From Catajapyx aquilonaris (Eukaryota), in contig KZ537970.1 of NCBI GenBank assembly GCA_000934665.2, positions 186,001-241,611 of the forward strand: a stretch of DNA of 55,611 nt. Direction: 5' to 3'. A model generated the notes under the pieces. That model was not told where the DNA came from. It worked only from the letters and a program-made list of their open reading frames with translations, and made no database searches. The translations under genes and the position numbers were made by a program. Shown here in pieces: positions 37,462 to 50,700 of this stretch (position 1 is its first letter; the number at the start of each line of letters is the position of its first letter).

Positions 37462-39077
37462 TTAAATTGTCAAACTTCCATCTTGCTTTCGAGTTATTTT
37501 CAATATTTCTCTCCTGACACCTGCAAGAAATGAAAGTATTAAATTGCTGAAGCAAAGTATGGGTCCTATAATATTATCTTTACCTTGTTTATGTTCAAAA
37601 CAAACTGTGCAATCCAAACCTCCTCTCTTTTGAAGTACCTCTTGAAACTCATAGGTAGAACCTCCAACTCCGAAATAACACACTTTGGCAGCCAAATACC
37701 TATCAGGTGTTAAGGAAACTACATAACATTTTTATCAATCCATGGACATGCATTGGTCACATTATTTTGTTCTACGTGTCAGAGCAAAGGATACATAGTT
37801 CCCTCAGGCTTCAAGGCAAACTTAATTAGGTTCGCTATCTTCCAGTAAGTTTCCACATTGTAAATTGTCTCTGATGCCAAGATATAATCATATTTATGGG
37901 TATCTGCATCTTGAGAATACCTAAATGTGTGCAAAAGAGATGACCAATCTCCAGCATAGAAGGAACAGGAAGCTTTTGACTCAGGTGTCCCAACATTGAG
38001 ATTCACATTTGGTATGGTCACATACATAATTACTTCGGCATTCTGTGAAGGAAAGACATGTTTGTTCAGTACATCAATCATAAAAATTGCTACATGGGTA
38101 TGACGTGTCAAACAATTTCAACTTCAAGAAAATTATTATGCTGAATATAAACAATTGGCAATTTACATACAGCTTCATTACAGTAAATAAACTAATGTAG
38201 CATAAGAACAATTACATAGTCTTGGAAGTGGACGACGGCACCATTCAAAAGGGCGTAGAGTCCTGGAAGGCTTTGTCCACATCCTATTTCCAGGACCTTC
38301 TTTCCCTTCCATGGCAGCTTCAGTGAGTGAAGATACTTGACTAAATCATGTGCACATTCCCACACCTTAAATCCACCTGAAAGAAATGAGCAGACAAACT
38401 TACTGAAGCTCCAAATCCTTCTTTTCCAGGAAAGAAAATGCTGCATGTTAACTGACTTTCCATAATTCAAATGCACTACATCGAATCTTGATTAGTGTTG
38501 TTAAGCCGTACTCAAAAATGACTATTTAATACAACATTACTAATATCTCTGATCATGTCAGATTTTGTATTGTGAATACCTCAACGTAATCACGGATTTC
38601 CCCTGATTTGCTTCCTTTTACACAACCTGCCCGAAGTCTACCTTACAGTGTGATTTTTGTGTCATTAGGATCATCTACACAGCATCAAGAAAACCAAACC
38701 TGATTCCAATACTGGACCAGTACGTCCTACACCTCACGTCTGGTTTTGCCGATGCCGTGCAAATGTGACCCCACACCAACCACCCTTCCTGCTTCACCCT
38801 CATAAACTCCAGGCTTGACGTCCAGGTTATTCCTGATGGTGTCCATGATTTCTCCCTTGGCTCCTTCAAAAGTGTCCATCCAGTGCAGCACATGCTCAGG
38901 GTCCAAGTACTTTATCCGCATGTGGTCATCCACCTGCAATGTCAGCTGGTGCTTCTGAGCTGAAGGGAATCCCTCAGGCACGTCCTCATAACCTATCTGG
39001 AGCGCCGGAGGTGCCGCATCGGACTCAGACTCCTCGTCAGGGATCGGATCTTCGCTTCCGTAGCCAAACAGGGCCAT
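37462..39077 (-). CDS. METTL18: Histidine protein methyltransferase 1 homolog (METTL18/Hpm1)
   Basis: Exons 39077-38798, 38376-38216, 38042-37795, 37699-37584, 37520-37462. Motifs PGVYEGGFKVWEC, VLEIGCG, FQDYNAEVI, GDWS, YDYILASETIYN, AAKVCYFGVGG, GVRREIL. Confidence 0.93.
37700..37794 (-). other. U12-type (minor spliceosome) GT-AG intron in METTL18
   Basis: 5' site GTATCCTTT; branch site TTCCTTAAC about 10 nt before the AG, without a polypyrimidine tract. Confidence 0.9.
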
Positions 39078-39340
39078 ATTTTTAAAATAATTGACAAGGA
39101 GCAAGCTGCACGTGCCACAAGAATTTTTGAATATTATCCAACATGGCCGCCAATGGAAAACAAGGTTGAAAAAAAAAATTTCGTTGAAGTGCACCATAAT
39201 TGTTTTAAAATTATTTATTGTTAAATTTAAAACATTTGAGTATGGTTTTTGTACTAAATAAGAACCCGACCGAGCCCGACAGATGTCTCTCTTTTTCCCC
39301 GAACACACAAAAAAAAATTGGAAGTCCAAGATGGCGTACA
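39078..39340. promoter_or_regulatory. Bidirectional promoter between METTL18 and GTF3C4/ITFG1, with YY1-like motifs
   Basis: 253 bp separate the divergent ATGs (39077 and 39331). CAACATGGCCGCC at 39139-39151 and CAAGATGGCG overlapping the GTF3C4 ATG. Local CpG enrichment. Confidence 0.7.
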
Positions 39341-42300
39341 GAGAACTGCAATTTTTACCTATTCCGTCATACTTGGAGGAAAAGTCCGGCCTTCAATGGT
39401 CAGAAGACGACCGGGTCTCGCTCATCACGCAGAAGGGGATCTATATTTTTGTAAGTGACTAGAAGAAAAGGGGGATCTGAATTGGTTGTGGGAAGCAGGG
39501 GGGAGTTGACCGAACTTGACGGAACAACCCATGCGACGTGTTGTTGGGAAGGCGAAAATCGAAGGGTTTACACATCATTGCATAACCTGGGATTCAGGGT
39601 TCTGGAACTGGGAGTGTCAGGTCTGGCCAAATCCTAGTTCCGAGGCTTCACTTGGGATACAGAATTCTTGCACCTGGGATTTCAACAGATGGCTGGAAAA
39701 TAATGGCAGGGTAGCCTACTGCATATTTATGTATAACAATGAACAGTAATTCCTGGCTCTGTAGTGGTGTAGTGGTCAAGTGCTGTAGCGGAAAACTAGT
39801 GTTCACAACTGACCTCCAGGATTCACCAACACGGAACTCCCAGACCCAACACTTGGTATCCCAGTAATCCTAGTAACACGTGAACTAAGTAATAGTTGCA
39901 TAAGACGGAATTAATTGCTGTGAGCAAGCCTGAATGCCATTTTAGAGGAATAGAATATTCAGTGAAATGGTGCGTTGAAAAGTAGACTACTCAAAGGTAA
40001 TGTTTTAATTGGTGGAAATAATTGTGGGCAGGGGGGCAGAGTGTTGTGGTTTTAAAAATTCTAACAAGCTGATTAACAAGTGTTACGAATGGGAATCACA
40101 TACTCCTGGAAGTGTAAGCCCTTCAATTTCCACTTCCTGTTTCCAGGTACTTACCATGTCTTCTACAAAACCTGCTCTAACTGCTCTTCTGGTGCTGTCT
40201 GTGCTGCTGGCACCGTGCATGGGAAGTGTTTTCACAAAAGAAGTGTTCGGAAACATCCCCAGAGACATCTACCCATCAGCTTTTGGTGATTTTAATGCGG
40301 ACAAGCGAACAGACATGTTTGTAGTGTCAAAGGATGAGAGTACGGTGGAGGTGTTGTTGGCCAGTGATGCTCCACCCTTGTTGAATCGCCCCAACATCTC
40401 ATGCACCATGGAGAGTGGTAGGAAGATACATAATGTTGTACCAGGAGACTACGATGGTGATGGAGTAATGGATGTGTTGGTCGTCACATCACTCAAAAGT
40501 TCGGACAAGCTACTAGATGTGTTTGTTTTATGGGGGAACTTGGTTTCTCTGGAGTGTGTTGAAAAAAGTTCTATCACACTTACAGGGGAGCCACTGATAT
40601 TTGATTACAATGGGGATATGGTAGGAGATGTGTTTGGGCTCAATGCTGATGGAAAACGAAATTTCTGGACATTTGGACGGGATAGGAGCGCACCATCTGC
40701 CACTCCTATGGATGGAGAGCCTTTTCGTGTGCCGCACTCCAATGCTGCAATTGACATCGATGCTGACTTTGCCACTGAACTTGTTGTCACAAACCAAAAT
40801 GCTTTTGAAGTGTGGAAACGTAACAATGGAACATATGTGAAGGTTGAAACAATGCCATATGCAAACATTTCGAGCAAGGAAGAGCGTATAGTTGGCCAAT
40901 CAATATGGCTTGATCTGAAACTAAGTGGTAAAATGAGCCACCTGGTACCTATTTGCTACAAACCAGGGTGTGAGTCCAGTGCTCTGTATGTATATGAGTC
41001 GGGAAAATGGCGCCAACTAGATGTCTCATTTACTGATTCTAGCAAGAAAATTTGGACATTCAATATGGATGGGTTGGATCGATACTCTGCTGCAATTACA
41101 CTAAGAGCTGGCGATTACAACCTAGATGGCTATCCAGATTTGCTGGTGTCATTACGACCTCAAGGAAAGTCAAAGGAACGTCCGCAAGCATTCATACTTG
41201 AGAATGTACCATGTGTTGCACACACTTGTGAATACTCCCGCACCTTTCAAGTTAACTGGCATTATCTGCAACGCTTTACAGATAGCCCAATGTCAACTTT
41301 TTATGATATTGGTGATGATGGTCTGCTTGACATAATATTGATGCAGAATGGAGAGGTTGAAGCCTTTAAAAATGAGTTGAGCATTGATGCCACATTTGTT
41401 AAAGTAATGGTACTCTCTGGTGTCTGCTACTTAAATTGCAAGGGTAATGTTAGGATACCGTACGGAACCAACTTGGTCGGACCATATGTGTGCTATTCCA
41501 TAACTACCCAACAAGGTGATGATCAGAAGTCATGTGGGGGTCAGATGCCACAAAATGCACATCAGGCTTTGCAGTTACCGTATCAGATATTCGGGTTGGG
41601 ACGCACTCCAAACTTTGTGGACACTCTTGAGGTTGGGCTAGCTGCAGATGCCAAGCATGAGTGGACCCAGATCATACCCAACTCACAGGTGATCATCATT
41701 CCATACCCAATTGACAACCCCAGCAAGTGGCAGGCCAAACTCTTTTTGACCCCAAGCAAGTCAGTGTTCATGACATTTGTGGCCCTGGTTGGAACCTGCA
41801 TCCTGGTGATGTTGATTATTGGAGTGTTGCACTGGAGGGAGAAGGTCGAGGACAAGAAGGAGAAGCTCCAGGAGGCACACCGTTTCCATTTTGATGCCTT
41901 GTAAAAGTTGTTCAGAGGAAAATCATGTTGCATTTTGTAAATTAATTCTAGTCATTGTTACTTCATTTTTGTATATACCAGATGTCACAATAAAATGTTT
42001 TTGATAAAGATGTGACAATGTAAATTGATTAATTTTTGCCTAAAAGTGTAGCCAGATCTGCTAAATGATAATGTGTGTAGTCATGCATGAAGTTAAGCAG
42101 CAGTGGTACTATGCCTTGCTGCATTTTGTAGTTGCAAATTTGGACACCTTGATGTTGTGGCTTGTGCCAAAGAGTGAAATATTTTTACGGTGTAAATATG
42201 TGAGTGGATCAAGTAATTATGTAAGAAGAACCAACAACAAAAATTCATAACATTGATGCAATTTACTAATTTTTGAAGATAATAATATGAAAGCTATTAG

Positions 42301-45300
42301 GAATCCTTACTGAAGTCTGTAGTTATTATGTTGGCAGTTTCTGCTTGAGCATTGGTACACAGTGGGCATGCCTTCCAATTGGCCCTTGTTGCACAGATGA
42401 AGGTATACGACAGTCTGGGGATATTGTCCTTGTTGCTAGCGGTATTGAGGAGAAAGCCAAAGATACAGCCAGCTCTCACTGGCTTATTGCAAAGCAACAT
42501 CCAATGTTGTGGTCCTGTAGTTCTTTAGTTCTATCAGGATGGCCTTCGTTCAAATTAATTTTGCATTCTTGAAATTACAGGAACTTGTCACGGATTGCAA
42601 AGGCCTGCAGCAGACATTAAACTTCCAGCGGTCCTTTATTCCAGCTCTTAGTAAGGGTAATGAGCACCTCTCTACAGGTACAGATAATTTTTCACTTAAT
42701 TTTTCTTGCATACAAATTAATCTTCTATACTGTTCAAGGACATGACCCATCACAGCTGGTATACTCTGGCAAGGATCGTCTGACTGTGTATAGTCTGGCC
42801 ATAGATCGTATATTGGCACCTAATTTGGAGGAAATGGAGCCTATGTCCATGACGTTTAAGTGTGCCATGTGGTCTCCAAAGGATCTGTCAAGAAGTGGGT
42901 GAGTCCTGCTGTGTTTATACAAAGTTCATACACTTTGGAAAAAATTAGTATTGCCTGCTTTCAAGGTTAAATAAGTACCTCAGTTGATCCTACTGGCTTT
43001 GGAAATATCTGTGCTTGACAGCTAGATCCATGTTATACTGTCTTGTTGTTTCCGTTAACCAGGGAACCTTGGAAAGCTATGATAAATATTGATGGTGTTT
43101 TTATTCTCGTAATCAGCAGGTGTAATGTTGATGCTTGCCAAACTGAAACATCTTTTGAAATGTTTGAGGGGAGAAGTTGATGGGACATATCTGTTGCTTT
43201 GTAGGTGCCTAATTGCAACTTTATCACGTGACTGCCAGCTGCACCTATACTCTTGTAACCAGAAGTCATGGATGCAGGCAGCCAACATTTCTGCCCAATG
43301 GTTGACACACTTGCAGAGTTTGTGGTCATTACCTGAATCTTCTAAGTATAGTGAGAAAGTCAGACAGCATGTGGAGAGGACAAATTTATTAGCCAGTAAT
43401 GGTGAGTCATGTTTTTATTGAGTTGGAAAAACGTATTCTAAGAGCGACTTGATGCTGTTTCAGCTATCACATGGAGTCATCTACTAGAAATTCAAAACGA
43501 AAGAATTGCCCTGCTTTTGACAGGGCAGAGGAGTGGTGATGTCGTGATATGGAAAGTAGCTGGGAGTCAGGCCAAATATGCTGCTCATTTCCATGTGTCT
43601 CCTGGCAGAATAAGCAGCCTTTTCTGGTGCCGAGACACGAAACATTCAGGTAGGCTACAAGTGGCCCATGCAGCATTAATTTGTCCCTATTCACTTATGC
43701 CTATGTGTTGTTTTTTGACCTGTATTAGGTGTTCTGGAGTTGCACTGGATTGGTCAGATGGTGCTATGCATTTGACAAGCACAATTGCTGAAAATTGTTT
43801 ACTTCGTATGATTCTGAAATGTTACCTGTCATCAGATTCATCTTACAATCCATAGGACTAGCTTTTCTTCATTTATTTACTGTTAGTGGATGTTATTTCT
43901 TATTGTTGTGCACCAACTTTGTTATTCAGGCCTGGCTGACACTATTTAGACAAGTTGTCAAAGGCTCTGTGGAACCCATCACTCGAAACTGCCATTTTTG
44001 TTTGTCTCTGAACAATCCCTGGTTACTAGTCACATGTCATCAGATCTAATGTTTTTGCATAAACATTCTGAGAATTAATGTATTGACCACTTCCAATTTT
44101 ACCTCGAGAAATTATAAGATTTGCAGATAGTTTCTTGTAACCCCCCAAGAATGTTGATTTACTGTTGTCACCTTATCATAATTGCAAAACTGAAGAAATA
44201 TTATGTCAAAATTATGAATTAAAACATTTGTTGCACTGCTGGAGAAATGACAACTACAATCTCAAATATTTGAGCACAACAAATTGTACTTTTTAGGATA
44301 CTTGCTTGTGGGATTTTCATCTGGTGAAGCCCACTTGTTGCATGTGGACTGCTCCAAGCCAGATGCTGTGGAGATCAAATCAGTCACAGTAGTCTGGAAG
44401 CATCAAGACAGACTTCAAGTGCATGGAATGGATTGCTACATAGAAGATGAAACTCTGGTGTGTGTAGTTGCAAAAGGAAACATTGTTGTGGCATGTGAGG
44501 TACAACTAACATCTGGCTGCACGTCACAAAAAGCTGAAGCCTTTCACCGCTGCCCTGGACTTGCCATCACAGGTGTGTCTCTTTGCACAAGAGTGTTGCC
44601 TTGAATCACTTTGACTGTGCATTTTCAGATATTATGCGGATTGAGCCAGGTGTTTACTACGTGTCACAGTATGATGGACCTGTCAGATCAGTTACTTTGT
44701 CCAGGTCTGATGGAAAATTAGAAATCACATCAGATGTGGTGACCTTTGATACTGAGAGGTCAAAGATGGCTTGCCTGGGGATTGCCTCCTCACGCAATCA
44801 TGCAATTCTGGCACTTGCAGAATGGTACAGTTTAGCAGTAATTATTTTCTCATCTGAATTTGTTTTCCTATTTTATACCATAACTTATCAATCATCCAAC
44901 TATAATTGGAAGTAATGTGTCCAAGTAATCAATGTTTTATTCAACTTATGGATATTTGCTTTTATCTTGCAGCATAGCAACGAATCATGACCACCTCGTG
45001 CTGAGGGAACCTTCCCGAGTCATCTTTTTCACTTCAAAGAATCCTTCAGACCTAATTGAGACTTTACATATTAATGAGAGTCAATCACTGCAGAACTATA
45101 CTGATTGTTTGGAAGTGTTGAGGTTAGCAATTAAGTTTACAATATGCAGTAGTGGTGCTTTTGGTGATATTTAAATTCCTACATATCTAACATATTGCTT
45201 GAGGTATAATTATCCATTTAATATGGGTGACATTGTGGTGGTTAGTGCCACAGCCTTTCACTTCTGGGGACCTGAGTGTGAGCCCCTTATCTCACCAAGC

Positions 45301-46675
45301 ACATTTTCTCATATACATAAATGTTCAGTGGGTTCTCCTTGTTCATATGCTTTTAAAGCGACCAACACTTTTAAAAGTTGGTGACCAGTATGTATGAGAG
45401 CAAAGACAGATAATTGTGCCTATAAATAATTGGAGCTGAAATAGATAATCTACGAGGCTTGCTAAACCCTTCTCAAACACATACGAGTTGTATGTTATGC
45501 AACGTGTATCCATAGAGGTGGACTCCTCTTATTGTGTTTTGTAACTTATGTGACTATTTTCCCCTGAACAGTACCTGCTTACTTATATGCTGCTGTTATA
45601 ATCTTCAGGGTGTTGTCGCTGATGCCAGAATCTCAGCCTTTGACAATAGAATGTGAAGAATTTACCTCACAAAATGCATATCAGTTGAGGTTGACCAGAT
45701 GGTTTGTGGGAGTCAGCTCTGTCTGCACGGAAGAAATTGAACAGCAAGAAATATTGGTAAGTCTGTAGTTCATGTTTTTCTTTTTGTGCATGAAAATATA
45801 CTCTTTCAGGTGGCTAAGGGCAAAGAAGTGGAAGTTTGGTTGTTTCAAAGACATGCCCTAGACATCCTCAAGCTGTACAGCTGCAAAGAGAAGTGGGATG
45901 AGAGAGAAGGAAGGTCCATTGCCTTGATGTGCTTGTGGTTGTCGCAGAATGGCCAAGACTTGGATTTTACAGAGACAAAGTTGTTGCAGCAAATGAGTGA
46001 AAAGGTTGCTGATCTGGCTAAAGAGCCTGCCAAATGCATAATTTGTGGAGATAATATCCTTTTGAAATGCGGTATAGGATAGAAGGCCCCAGTTTGTTGG
46101 TAGTATTGTGATTTTTATTTTTAGTTTTAGTTTCACCTTCCACACTTGGTATATTTTTTTAAACTGGCGTGAAAAGTGGGCAAAAAACATGATTGTGGCA
46201 TTCAGTTGTACTGTAGTCTTTTTTATTGCCATGGCGAAAAAATCTTATTGTAAAAATATGACGTGACTTTATTCAATTTGTAGTAATGTTCAGTATTGAC
46301 CAAAGTACGATGGATTTTCTGGTTTAGATACTTTACCTTGACGCTTGTATACATCTGAAGCAGGACAGCTACAAGAAAGCATCATGTCCAGAAGGCCATA
46401 ATTGGCCTATTTGCACCTTAACTATGGAAGTTTGCACTAATATTTCATATAGAGAGTGCATTGGATGCAAGGCTGTTGCAGCTCAGCAGCCAGGTATGTA
46501 TTCGCTTTTGTGCAGGTGTGCCATTTGGACCCTCTCAAAAAACATTATTCTCATGAAATTTTTTTTGTTGGTGATTTACTAACAATTTTGTCTTTCCGAA
46601 GCCATTCCAGGTATGGAAAGGTGCATCTTTTGTGAAGGAAGACTGATTTCCGTAGTTGGACTTGTACCTGCTTGA
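39331..46675 (+). CDS. GTF3C4: General transcription factor IIIC subunit 4 (TFIIIC90/delta), about 12 exons
   Basis: Exon 1 (39331-39450) MAYRE..QWSEDDRVSLITQKGIYIF splices in phase 0 to 42581 ELVTDC..FQRSFIP. Then FKCAMWSPKDLSRSG|CLIATLS, WD40-like exons, and a C-terminal zinc finger CIIC..CPEGHNWPICTLT..C..C..CIFC. Recalled human GTF3C4 has WSEDHRVSVST..LELICD, FKYTSWSP and CSNGHIWLRC. Confidence 0.88.
40156..41904 (+). CDS. ITFG1: T-cell immunomodulatory protein / LINKIN (FG-GAP repeat type I membrane protein), intronless, nested in GTF3C4 intron 1
   Basis: Signal peptide MSSTKPALTALLVL; FG-GAP-like AFGDFNADKRTD, PGDYDGDGVMD, GDYNLDGYPD; FGLGRTPNFVD; WTQIIPNSQ; TM helix; conserved tail QEAHRFHFDAL. 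Confidence 0.95.
   Translation: MSSTKPALTALLVLSVLLAPCMGSVFTKEVFGNIPRDIYPSAFGDFNADKRTDMFVVSKDESTVEVLLASDAPPLLNRPNISCTMESGRKIHNVVPGDYDGDGVMDVLVVTSLKSSDKLLDVFVLWGNLVSLECVEKSSITLTGEPLIFDYNGDMVGDVFGLNADGKRNFWTFGRDRSAPSATPMDGEPFRVPHSNAAIDIDADFATELVVTNQNAFEVWKRNNGTYVKVETMPYANISSKEERIVGQSIWLDLKLSGKMSHLVPICYKPGCESSALYVYESGKWRQLDVSFTDSSKKIWTFNMDGLDRYSAAITLRAGDYNLDGYPDLLVSLRPQGKSKERPQAFILENVPCVAHTCEYSRTFQVNWHYLQRFTDSPMSTFYDIGDDGLLDIILMQNGEVEAFKNELSIDATFVKVMVLSGVCYLNCKGNVRIPYGTNLVGPYVCYSITTQQGDDQKSCGGQMPQNAHQALQLPYQIFGLGRTPNFVDTLEVGLAADAKHEWTQIIPNSQVIIIPYPIDNPSKWQAKLFLTPSKSVFMTFVALVGTCILVMLIIGVLHWREKVEDKKEKLQEAHRFHFDAL
41989..41994 (+). terminator. Candidate polyadenylation signal for ITFG1 (intronic to GTF3C4)
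   Basis: AATAAA about 85 nt after the ITFG1 stop, followed by T/GT-rich sequence. Confidence 0.55.
45225..45350 (+). mobile_element. Degenerate tRNA-derived SINE head in a GTF3C4 intron
   Basis: A-box-like TGGTGGTTAGTG, then GCCTTTCACTTCTGGGGACCTGAGTGTGAGCCCC (CpG-decayed B-box region). Confidence 0.35.
46054..46352 (+). other. U12-type AT-AC intron in GTF3C4
   Basis: 5' site ATATCCTTTT; branch TTACCTTGAC at 46333-46342; 3' end TAC|. Splicing gives in-frame CIICGD-N-LKQDSYKKASCPEGH. Confidence 0.9.
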
Positions 46676-47088
46676 TATAATGGTTTAGCCAGCATATGTA
46701 AAACAGAACACAGTACTTACTTGTAAATATTTTTGTCACATAAATTACTTTCCAGATTAGGAAAGAATATGTGGAAGTAAAAGTTTCTCATGTTTTAAGG
46801 TGATATTTATTTTACCATCAAATATTTCTCATACTGCATGTCAGCTTGGCATTGACATTGGGCTGGTGCATTTTATGACACTTATGAAGGTAGAGGGATG
46901 TGAAAAATAGTAGCACTGTATAATTGCTTTAAATGAGTTGTACCTAGAGCAGCTCATGAAACGTCATTTAAGCTTCACTTTATATTGTTTTACATAAAAT
47001 GAAGAATATTTGGACTACATTTCTACATGAGTGATGTGCCAATGACTTAGGCAACATCACCAAGAGGCATATCTAGTTAATATGTGCT

Positions 47089-47728
47089 TCACCACAATGA
47101 TTCAGTGAGGAATGTGTATGGTGTGCCTTCAACTTCTGTCATCCCAATCTGAGGCTGCATTGGGAAGTCTGTCCCAGAAACAAATCCTGGGTTATAGTTT
47201 GGCTCAGAATAGACGTCTTCACCATATGTAGTGGGAACTGAGCCTGCTGGGAACTCCATTTCGTCACTGCCTCTGTAGAGTGGAAAATGGATGCCTTGAG
47301 TCAGAAACTCGTCATTTTCACTTGCCACACGGTAATCAGGCAAGATTCCAGCTGGTTCAAACACAGCATACTGCACAGGCTTGGGGTATGCCTGAGGTAA
47401 CAGTGTCCTTGGGTTGAGGTTGAGGAATCCAGCTATCAGGTTGGTTGTCGCTTGGGACAGACCACGGGAAAGAGCCTTTGCAAAAGCAACTGTCTCCATT
47501 GGGCATCCATCCTCCAGTATGCGGGACATAACTCGAATATAATTGTGGGCTAATCGCAGGGTCTCAATCTTGGAGAGCTTCTGCGTGCGAGAATGGACTG
47601 GTACACAGCTTCTGAGTCGGTCCAGGGCTTCATTGAGTCCATGCATCCGGTTTCGTTCACGGGCATTGGCCTTGCAACGACGCACACGGAATTTGTTGGG
47701 GCGAGGTTTAAGTTGACCCCAGTCATCT
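47089..47728 (-). CDS. NeuroD: NeuroD-family bHLH transcription factor, main exon; candidate upstream coding exon 50638-50559
   Basis: b[44 protein letters not shown] plus the NeuroD-specific extension [22 protein letters not shown]. Acceptor ccacag at 47729-30 (phase 2) is compatible with exon 50638-50559 (ATG 50623, MAGGNSS). Confidence 0.9.
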
Positions 47729-50700
47729 CTGTGGAGGTTGAGCATATGTTACAGATTCTTAAATACCATTGATTACAAGATGCACTAACAAAGGGAAAAA
47801 TTAAAGTTGTAATTTTACAATCTGATTTAGATGTATTTAGGATGCAAGTGAATTTGAAACATGTCACGCACTGTCAGTCTCAGTTTTGTATCATTGTGAC
47901 ACTGGAGGAAACCATGGAAAAATACCATATTAATCAATATTGCAGGTGATTGTGCTCCAGTAGAAACTAGATCATCAGTAATTCTGATGATTTATGCAGC
48001 AGATTTCATCACAAATTTTTTATGAAGTATAAATCAGGATTCATGCCATATTTTGCCAGGTTTGAGTTCTGGACTGGCACTAGGACCTGACAAAATGAGA
48101 ATCTTTAACTCTAGACTACACTAACAAGTAAGAGGCGCAGCCTATACAGGAGGTTCAACATGAATGTGGAAATTTTAATTAAGCAGGGTTTTACATTGCC
48201 CTGGAAATTGTTATCACAGCTGATAAGGTCAGGTTGCAGAGGAGTATCTCAATTGGTCGGTGTGTTTTGGGAACTTATGAAATTGATCAAAGTGGTTGCA
48301 AACCACCTTAGATATTTTTTAATTAAATGCTTATCTCAGGTAATGGCTTATCTCTGCAGCACTTGTACCATGTGACTTTATCTGAGCATAGAAGCATTAG
48401 TGTAGGTGAGAAGGGTAGCATGTCAGGATACAAGATTTTTTTTTCTCACACACTCTTTCAGACATCTACAGTATTATGTGCTACAGTATATTGGACAAAT
48501 GACAGAGATTACTGAGCCCAATTCTATAGTCGAAAGTGTAGGACTTTAGGGTTTTAAAATGTCGAACATTGCACTTCACACTGCCACATGGGAATGGCTC
48601 TCTTTTTCTTAGAAAGCTTTTGTCACTAAACTTAATACAATGCAATTTTACAATTACTAGAGAATATTTACACTGCAAAGGACTGTACTCGGTTTTTATG
48701 GGATAATATGATGAAGCTGTTAGATACAAATAGCAGGACGAATAAACGAATCCTGTAAAAATACTAAAATAGGATTTAGTGCTTTTGCTTCTAATGGCTA
48801 TGGGTTTCATGGATCATTCCCAATGTCTTTACCCGGTCTCAAATTCTGGTCCTGAAGGACTAGTCCTATTCAACCTAATATTAGCATTAATAGGCGTCTA
48901 TTGATACCACCTCAGTGCAATTGATCCAAAGGAACTGCTTGTTGATATGAAATATGTTGGTGTCAAAATTTTGATAATACGTAAAAATTGGTAAAAGGGA
49001 TATGTCAATCGGAATGCCCTCATTTCACAATCTTTTTAGCACATTAAAAGAACTCTGCAAAAAATGGAGCACAAGGATGTTATTTACACTGTCTGTGATT
49101 ACCTGACTCTAATATATGCCTATTCGCTATTCCTTCCCAAACATAATTTAAAACATTTGTTGGTTGTTTGCATTCTCTACAGGGTTCGGAAATGTAATCT
49201 ACCATCGCTTTGGGAAATGATAGAGCAGTTCTAGTCGATCACTTTGAGGATATGCAACATGCGTGTCCGCAGTATAGTTATACTGAGATAATGTGCTGTA
49301 AAAACACGAGGTATAAAATTGATCTCCTGGCACATAATTATACGCGTCCCTCCCCGCGACCTTACCTTTTCCATTTATATTTAAGGTGTTACCGTGTAAT
49401 TTAATTTACATTTATGATCCCATTAGGTGTAGGGAATGGCCAAGGCGATAGAAGAAGTGTCGTAAGCTGTATCCGCGACATAGAAGATGCTGTAATACAC
49501 TTTTTATTTTATGCTAGCTTATCTCGGCAACAATATGCTGCCGACACCCATGATGATCTCCTAGAACCTTTCTATCATTATTTTCTCAAAGCTATTTATG
49601 GTACGATTTTACACACCCTATGATTTTGCATTTTGTTCTTAGAGGGCTGATGCATTTTTAGCTCAGATGACCTTACTCACCCTGCACCTATACGACAATT
49701 AGGGAATGTTAGCCAGGCATTAAAATAGTTTATACTTCATGAATTTGAATCGTTGATATAGCATATTCCCATGAGTGCCTTTTCGTGTTTTTTTGGGGTC
49801 ATATACTGAGGTATCTACACGTGTATAACTTGGTAGCTATGCCATTTGTATAGGCTAAGGATAATAATCGAGTCCTTTTCCATAATTATACAACTGAGCA
49901 TGTGATACATTATAACTCACTCTTTTAAAAAATCAATGTAAGTACTGTACGTGGAATAAATAATTTTTGGTGACGAAATAATGGTGCGGAGACACAGAAC
50001 TCTGGCCTCTGCTGTGTATCCTGGAATGTAGGCTACCCTCACCACCAGCCAGTTATGCCTATATGGTGCGCGAGTGCTTAATTAAAAACTTGGTCCTGCC
50101 TTCCTGTACCTCGTTTACCACAAAACGCATTTAGCATGAGATATTTATGAGGATTTTATTCCGGAGATAATATACAGCTATACCGTGTACAAACCACTTA
50201 TTTCTGCAATTAAGAGGTAAATGGGTTTTACGTACATGTACAGTATAGTAAGTTATGTCCGAATTCTCACTGTAACAAGCCTTCGACTCATGTTGTCTCA
50301 TTCAAAATAAATTTCGAATAAATACGACATGTTGCTCAAATAATATTTTACGATCGGGAATTGCTATATAAAGATTTTTGTCTGTACTATAGCAGTGTGG
50401 GCGGCCTATGATCACTCTTGTTATCCTTGTTACAGAGTGTTTGTTAAAGCTGCAAAAATGCCGATCACTCTCTCGCTAACAGGGTAAGCAGAGTTCCGTA
50501 ATTTCTTGACATTGTCTTTCTTACAAAATATAAATGTGATCACCACTATCGTAAATACCTGTTTTGATGCACCTTTGTCACCACTTCTCTGGCACCACCA
50601 GCACTACTATTCCCGCCTGCCATGTCTTTTACGGTTATCTACAAAAAATTAAGACAATGACTCTTATTTGTTAGGCATAACACGAAGAGTCAGTCTCTGA

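Follow-up and report, generated by a model that had tools for sequence, protein, structure and literature searches.

A 55,611-nucleotide stretch of contig KZ537970.1 of Catajapyx aquilonaris (assembly GCA_000934665.2, positions 186,001 to 241,611 of the forward strand; hereafter the window, numbered from its first letter) contains a gene for GTF3C4, a subunit of the RNA polymerase III (Pol III) factor TFIIIC, which appears to share its first coding exon with the unrelated gene ITFG1, also known as LINKIN. The ITFG1 open reading frame (ORF; 40156-41904, 582 codons) is intronless, uninterrupted and located on the same strand between exons 1 and 2 of GTF3C4, i.e. nested in intron 1 of the host gene, as had been claimed in an earlier note on this DNA. 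Re-reading of the sequence showed that all coordinates in that note are correct and that the AATAAA it had placed ahead of GTF3C4 exon 2 is present. Its assignment of a METTL18 gene to the opposite strand agrees with the best Protein Data Bank (PDB) match of the minus-strand gene that starts at 39077, namely 4rfq ('Histidine protein methyltransferase 1 homolog'; 4.6e-13 versus 1.8e-6 for METTL21B). The features of the locus are listed in Table 1.

Table 1. Positions of the genes, exons, introns and putative regulatory elements at the GTF3C4/ITFG1 locus, in window coordinates.
Feature	Position	Strand	Remarks
METTL18-like first exon, ATG 39077	38795-39109	-	X1 contig cover; ORF 38727-39077; divergent from the shared exon
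Presumed bidirectional promoter	39110-39330	.	at most 231 bp between RNA ends 39109 and 39341; contig ends are not transcription starts
Shared first coding exon	39331-39450	+	ATG 39331; 120 nt = 40 codons; ends in phase 0; first codons of GTF3C4 and, in addition, 5' exon of the ITFG1 mRNA
Intron spliced out of the ITFG1 mRNA	39451-40146	+	696 nt, GTAAGT...TTTCCAG; X1 joint
Single ITFG1/LINKIN exon	40147-41904	+	9-nt in-frame linker (VLT) + 582-codon ORF 40156-41904
Candidate ITFG1 poly(A) signal	41989-41994	+	AATAAA; 85 nt past the stop codon, 5' of GTF3C4 exon 2; from sequence only
GTF3C4 intron 1	39451-42580	+	3130 nt, encloses the ITFG1 exon; donor and acceptor from sequence, exon 1-exon 2 join predicted from the colinear P0121 alignment
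GTF3C4 exon 2	42581-42677	+	gene model; P0121 alignment continues across the exon 1/exon 2 join
GTF3C4 exons 3-10	42739-42898, 43205-43401, 43464-43649, 44297-44572, 44629-44824, 44973-45122, 45609-45756, 45810-46053	+	model, RNA joints, Pfam
GTF3C4 intron 10	46054-46352	+	AT-AC, U12-type by sequence; donor ATATCCTTT at 46054; TTACCTTGAC then 10 nt; AC 46351-46352
GTF3C4 exons 11 and 12	46353-46493, 46602-46675 (including stop)	+	zf-TFIIIC, RNA joint, model

The 40-codon exon is directly followed by a GTAAGT donor at 39451, for which two acceptors can be read downstream. The last base of the near acceptor (...cttcctgtttccag) is 40146, and the exon beginning at 40147 reads GTA CTT ACC ATG. With exon 1 ending in phase 0, this start places the ITFG1 ATG (40156) in frame with the ATG at 39331, and the fused ORF of exon 1, linker and ITFG1 comprises 625 codons. 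The AG of the far acceptor occupies 42579-42580, and the exon that it defines thus begins at 42581. The pyrimidine fraction is 0.8 in the near acceptor (-23 to -4) versus 0.6 in the far acceptor.

Identity and splicing of ITFG1

The ORF at 40156-41904 is ITFG1/LINKIN. In Pfam it matched C2_ITFG1 (PF23122; 3.4e-36, residues 435-530, with the full profile covered), FG-GAP_3 (5.9e-17) and FG-GAP (5.2e-7), and at least 120 arthropod homologues with 42-47% identity were listed, every named one of which is annotated as T-cell immunomodulatory protein, ITFG1 or similar. LINKIN has been described as a transmembrane adhesion protein that is conserved and possesses a signal peptide and seven atypical FG-GAP domains (PMC4275582). 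The window protein has a signal-peptide-like hydrophobic core, LTALLVLSVLL (KD 2.86), and its tail, QEAHRFHFDAL, pairs with QEAHRFHFDAM of the homologues.

Transcript evidence was obtained from a public sequencing run (X1; Logan assembly contigs), which contains 41% of the sampled words, comprises 32 million letters and has no library kind on record. Its contigs were placed on positions 37500-47000; such contigs cannot give transcript starts, ends or proportions. Seven joints were listed, six with GT..AG ends and one with CT..AC ends (a minus-strand intron), and since the contigs skip introns with these ends, the run behaves as RNA or complementary DNA. One contig of 846 nt joins 39341-39450 to 40147-40882 without mismatches or gaps, skipping 696 nt with GT..AG ends. 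The earlier note had predicted this 39450-to-40147 junction and had held that its absence would speak against its reading; the junction is present and exact. The ITFG1 exon is covered without mismatches at 40147-40882 and 40977-41733, and the sole contig that reaches its 5' end is the one spliced to exon 1.

The joint is represented by one contig (depth 9.76), and a chimera produced by the Logan assembly could be suspected given a single contig of depth about 10 from one small run (32 million letters). We consider such an artefact scarcely credible, since the contig breaks precisely at the GT and AG that had been predicted beforehand, the flanks of 110 and 736 nt contain no mismatches, and the identical join is visible as protein in four other lineages (see the next subsection). 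An in-frame join alone would be a 1-in-3 event, but the RNA junction and its recurrence in other arthropods raise it above chance.

The shared exon in other arthropods, the GTF3C4 host gene and its neighbourhood

The 43-residue extension encoded by exon 1 and the linker was searched against the 120 listed ITFG1 homologues. Four of them bear it, namely P0002 (Ischnura elegans, isoform X2), P0053 (Thrips palmi), P0119 and P0071, with E-values from 4e-7 to 7e-5; the next match (E 0.13) lies elsewhere in the protein. The alignments cover residues 1-40 (1-39 in P0053) with 35-42% identity over 40 residues. Among seven further cluster members, the extension is present in four (P0126, P0129, P0130 and P0131) and absent from three (P0125, P0127 and P0128). 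The homologous block always stops after its residue 40. A database search with residues 1-40 of P0002 returned, besides P0002 itself, a single protein, P0121, which is 100% identical over this segment and is annotated as 'uncharacterized protein LOC124159194 isoform X1 [Ischnura elegans]' (691 residues, Pfam PF12657). Both P0121 and P0002 map to one 137.5-Mb contig; their accessions are consecutive, and they carry the labels isoform X1 and isoform X2, respectively. In Ischnura, one 40-residue N-terminus heads both a TFIIIC_delta protein and ITFG1. Judged from the protein extensions, the shared-exon arrangement appears to be conserved across arthropods (Ischnura, Thrips palmi and two further lineages).

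The host gene was modelled by script from splice sites and RNA joints, and Pfam scans were run exon by exon. The GTF3C4-like model has 12 exons and encodes 662 residues without an internal stop. Residues 23-40 of exon 1 align with positions 1-18 of the TFIIIC_delta profile (E 0.19, 11.4 bits), the sole Pfam match of this exon; exon 3 aligns with positions 47-94 (E 0.014, 15.2 bits) and exon 5 with positions 164-217 (E 2.6e-4, 20.8 bits). These three matches are colinear, each scoring under the cut-off of 27, and exon 11 matches zf-TFIIIC with 26.7 bits (E 6.2e-6), above the cut-off of 23. P0121 of Ischnura matches TFIIIC_delta with 82.8 bits (4.1e-23), and its residue 23 corresponds to profile position 1, which is the register of exon 1 in the window. 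Residues 1-653 of the window model align with residues 1-685 of P0121 (26% identity, E 2e-62, 208 bits).

These comparisons bear on the idea that the 40-codon exon now belongs to ITFG1 only and that GTF3C4 starts at the ATG at 42539, with a promoter past the ITFG1 poly(A) site, so that the two genes would be in tandem rather than nested. From that ATG the frame stays open across the exon 2 acceptor and yields MAFVQINFAFLKLQ before ELVTD, and no RNA contig shows the exon 1-exon 2 junction. However, exon 1 holds TFIIIC_delta positions 1-18, which open the domain in P0121, and a model starting at 42539 reaches 180 bits against P0121, with an alignment only from residue 47 (against residue 72), compared with 208 bits from residue 1 for the model that includes exon 1. 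The conservation of WSEDD...ITxKG would also be hard to explain for a mere signal-peptide leader. We therefore regard a tandem arrangement as very improbable. The TFIIIC_delta register and the alignment with P0121 from residue 1 indicate that the 40 codons represent the true start of GTF3C4, and the sharing of exon 1 with GTF3C4 in the window, as proposed in the earlier note, is supported by this homology; the acceptor at 42581, which the note had also named, is present in the sequence.

Other searches with the host gene were negative. No matches to exon 1, exon 3 or P0121, including to the solved human TFIIIC subunit, were obtained with phmmer against PDB sequences, probably because searching with one sequence lacks the sensitivity for so distant a relationship. 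A search for exon 5 homologues among longer proteins gave 10 candidates, none of which scored, and three matches of exon 6 were set aside, being proteins of 1101-2788 residues with several matched stretches, unlike GTF3C4.

X1 joints within GTF3C4 were found at 43400>43463, 43647>44295 and 45755>45809, a loose contig end joins about 45122 to 45609, and a joint at 46491>46600 (exons 11/12) fits equally well 2 nt rightward. Another contig joins 44837 to 44973 via a GTAATT donor located 13 nt downstream of the frame-keeping donor at 44825; as a stop follows after five codons (HSNES*), this join probably represents an unproductive isoform. At 43544, the window differs from an X1 contig by a single G>A change located 82 nt from the end of that contig (depth 2.2), which may be an allele or an error.

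U12-type AT-AC introns are characterised by the 5' splice site ATATCCTT, a branch site similar to TCCTTRAC at 10-15 nt from the 3' end, and a terminal AC. Intron 10 of GTF3C4 has such a sequence (Table 1), and a GT-AG reading of this intron was rejected because it breaks the frame, while the AT-AC reading keeps it. This intron lies in the GTF3C4-only part of the locus, in agreement with the proposal in the earlier note that the GTF3C4 outcome would need the minor spliceosome. The spliced joint from 46053 to 46353 is absent among the X1 joints listed. One X1 contig (45809-46265) crosses the AT-AC donor at 46054 unspliced, which fits retention of a U12-type intron or pre-mRNA.

Upstream of the shared exon, the METTL18-like gene runs in the opposite direction, and in its downstream exons the Methyltransf_16 matches are colinear on two exons. 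The interval between the two genes is presumed to be a bidirectional promoter. The sequence AAGATGGCG at the shared start codon (39320-39340) and AACATGGCCGCC upstream of it (39140-39160) bear a possible resemblance to a YY1-type core motif of bidirectional promoters. Upstream of 39331 there are three out-of-frame ATGs (39143, 39153 and 39242) and one in-frame ATG (39283). The latter is located 16 codons upstream of 39331 inside a CTCTCTTTTTCCCC stretch and, because relatives start at the position of 39331, probably belongs to the 5' untranslated region or lies upstream of the transcription start. At the other end of the locus, a neuronal basic helix-loop-helix gene (47092-47748, minus strand; HLH 2.1e-18, Neuro_bHLH 6.7e-12) is convergent with the 3' end of GTF3C4. 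A tRNA-like element considered at 39755-39785 was rejected: ARAGORN found no genes, Rfam gave only mir-101 (E 0.86, far under the gathering score), and the motif occurs once in the window.

Translation of the extension and the case for an independent ITFG1

ITFG1 could be translated from the spliced mRNA either with the extension or by leaky scanning to its own ATG; both had been put forward in the earlier note. The contexts of the two start codons are aagATGg at 39331 and accATG at 40156, and an out-of-frame ATG with a 65-codon ORF is located between them. The context of the first ATG and the presence of the intervening out-of-frame ATG argue against efficient leaky scanning. In five of the nine extension-bearing rows (P0119, P0071, P0129, P0130 and P0131, representing two lineages), there is no methionine between the junction and the hydrophobic core; this stretch likewise lacks methionine in P0120, which is 82% identical to P0119. 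The shared ATG would therefore be the only start in the spliced mRNA of those lineages, and the loss of methionine in two lineages favours a translated extension over leaky scanning.

The reading that we prefer is that one transcription unit gives rise to two unrelated proteins from the shared exon 1, and we assign it a probability of roughly 85%. Several points weigh against it. The GTF3C4 junction from 39450 to 42581 rests on homology, with X1 having no cover on 42572-43205, and the ATG at 42539 is in frame with exon 2. The RNA support comes from one run, of unrecorded kind, which may derive from the assembled organism. In the comparative data, 116 of the 120 listed ITFG1 homologues are without the extension, so that the arrangement is either not universal or often unannotated, and the sample is biased to in-frame joins because only these appear as protein extensions. 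P0072 begins with MVWFCWQ before the junction (...FCWQ) and the corresponding part of P0125 ends in CCQ (...VCCQ), both of which look like translated polypyrimidine-CAG intron ends. Intron-initiated or unspliced ITFG1 transcripts may thus coexist in relatives and could supply another in-frame ATG.

The last points would also suit a nested ITFG1 gene that is expressed mainly on its own, from a promoter within the intron, the exon 1-to-40147 product being a minor by-product of host transcription. The ORFs of relatives that run in from sequence resembling the 3' end of an intron (P0072 and P0125) or start at an internal methionine (P0127) can be read in this way, as can the rarity of the extension among the listed homologues and the retention in the window of an ITFG1 ATG of its own in the context accATG. 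Nevertheless, the only X1 contig at the 5' end of ITFG1 is spliced to exon 1, joining across 39451-40146; two lineages have lost every methionine between the junction and the signal core; and the extension is in frame and homologous in five lineages. Mainly independent expression is thus considered unlikely, although it is the least implausible of the alternatives weighed here.

The age of the arrangement can be sketched from the same proteins. Because Odonata and Thysanoptera both have the extension, the fusion would date back at least to the origin of winged insects and may predate it. ITFG1 identity is approximately 55-60% among insects and 43-47% between the window and insects. In a FastTree analysis of 37 rows hand-picked from 128 (the named rows and part of the others), the window ITFG1 fell outside the insects, together with krill and branchiopods (98 SH-like support), but its place is unsure because it was flagged as a long branch.

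Proposed mechanism and comparison with known loci

Under the shared-exon reading, transcription would start beside the divergent METTL18-like gene and produce a first exon with 40 codons, whose donor at 39451 could pair with either of two acceptors. Use of the near acceptor at 40147 would add the single 1.76-kb exon with ITFG1, its stop codon and the AATAAA, and the mRNA would end within GTF3C4 intron 1. Use of the far acceptor at 42581 would add eleven more exons, one of which is flanked by the U12-type AT-AC intron, and would yield the TFIIIC subunit GTF3C4. The exon 1-exon 2 junction and the use of the candidate poly(A) site are parts of this proposal, and the two outcomes would compete for the same transcript.

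No stop interrupts the 9-nt linker and the end of exon 1 is in phase 0, so that a 625-residue precursor is encoded by the ITFG1 mRNA; its first 43 residues would correspond to GTF3C4 exon 1 plus VLT, ahead of the ITFG1 signal peptide. This extension would probably act as a long n-region that is cut off together with the signal peptide. In that case mature ITFG1 would not be altered, and the tolerance of the fusion would be accounted for. ITFG1 may have reached the intron by retroposition; no A-tract was seen by eye 3' of the AATAAA.

A more far-reaching picture, which we put forward tentatively, is that the fusion is ancient, and perhaps pancrustacean given the position of the window ITFG1 outside the insects in the 37-row tree. 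ITFG1 would have ceded its start codon to the gene for a Pol III factor, the outputs of the Pol III factor and the adhesion protein could be coupled by competition between the two acceptors and intronic polyadenylation, slow splicing of the U12 intron could control the GTF3C4 branch, and a TFIIIC-derived peptide with a possible role of its own could be released along with the signal peptide.

No published description of the GTF3C4/ITFG1 arrangement was found in the literature, and its sole trace consists of the automatic isoform labels of NCBI. The closest known system is the Su(var)3-9/eIF2-gamma locus, in which, according to Krauss et al. (2006), a large single guest exon resides in a host intron and is expressed from a common promoter by 3' alternative splicing (PMC1435931). 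The common N-terminus comprises 79-84 residues, the arrangement is kept in eight insect orders, and the locus was proposed to have originated by retrotransposition and activation of a cryptic acceptor (PMC1435931). Both loci have a one-exon guest in a same-strand intron of an unrelated housekeeping host, with a 5' coding exon in frame on the guest mRNA, whereas the common N-terminus is shorter in GTF3C4/ITFG1 (40 residues). Another difference concerns the fate of this segment: in Su(var)3-9 it stays on the protein and is used, whereas in ITFG1, where the guest is a membrane protein of the secretory pathway, it is located in front of a signal peptide and is probably removed. The genes are also different ones, the GTF3C4 part has a U12-type intron, and the phylogenetic extent is only sketched here.

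Related arrangements are found elsewhere. In the cholinergic locus, the intronless VAChT gene is located in the first intron of ChAT, in the same orientation, and alternative splicing allows both to be expressed from a common promoter and first exon. The exon in common there is non-coding and the products act in one pathway, whereas GTF3C4 and ITFG1 have a coding exon in common and are unrelated proteins. The human CPNE1 and RBM12 genes, which are distinct, are reportedly expressed from one promoter with 5'-exon sharing by alternative splicing. N-terminally extended ('long') signal peptides are also known, with a hydrophobic core 50 to 75 residues from the initiator methionine. Unlike in those cases, the n-region of ITFG1 is the start of the protein of another gene, and its cleavage and targeting are predictions.

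The GTF3C4-ITFG1 locus is thus well supported as a further example of a known but rare kind, in which unrelated genes share a coding exon. Two unrelated proteins with one promoter and a common coding first exon are rare, Su(var)3-9/eIF2-gamma being the textbook case in insects. Another example, which apparently is old and arose independently, would allow the retroposition origin, the single-exon state of the guest and the choice between splicing and polyadenylation to be tested. Since annotations give the products as isoforms of one gene or under inconsistent names, tables of orthology and expression that include arthropod GTF3C4 and ITFG1 may be confounded. The borrowed N-terminus before a signal peptide would, in addition, constitute a natural experiment on the length of N-terminal extension that is compatible with targeting to the endoplasmic reticulum.

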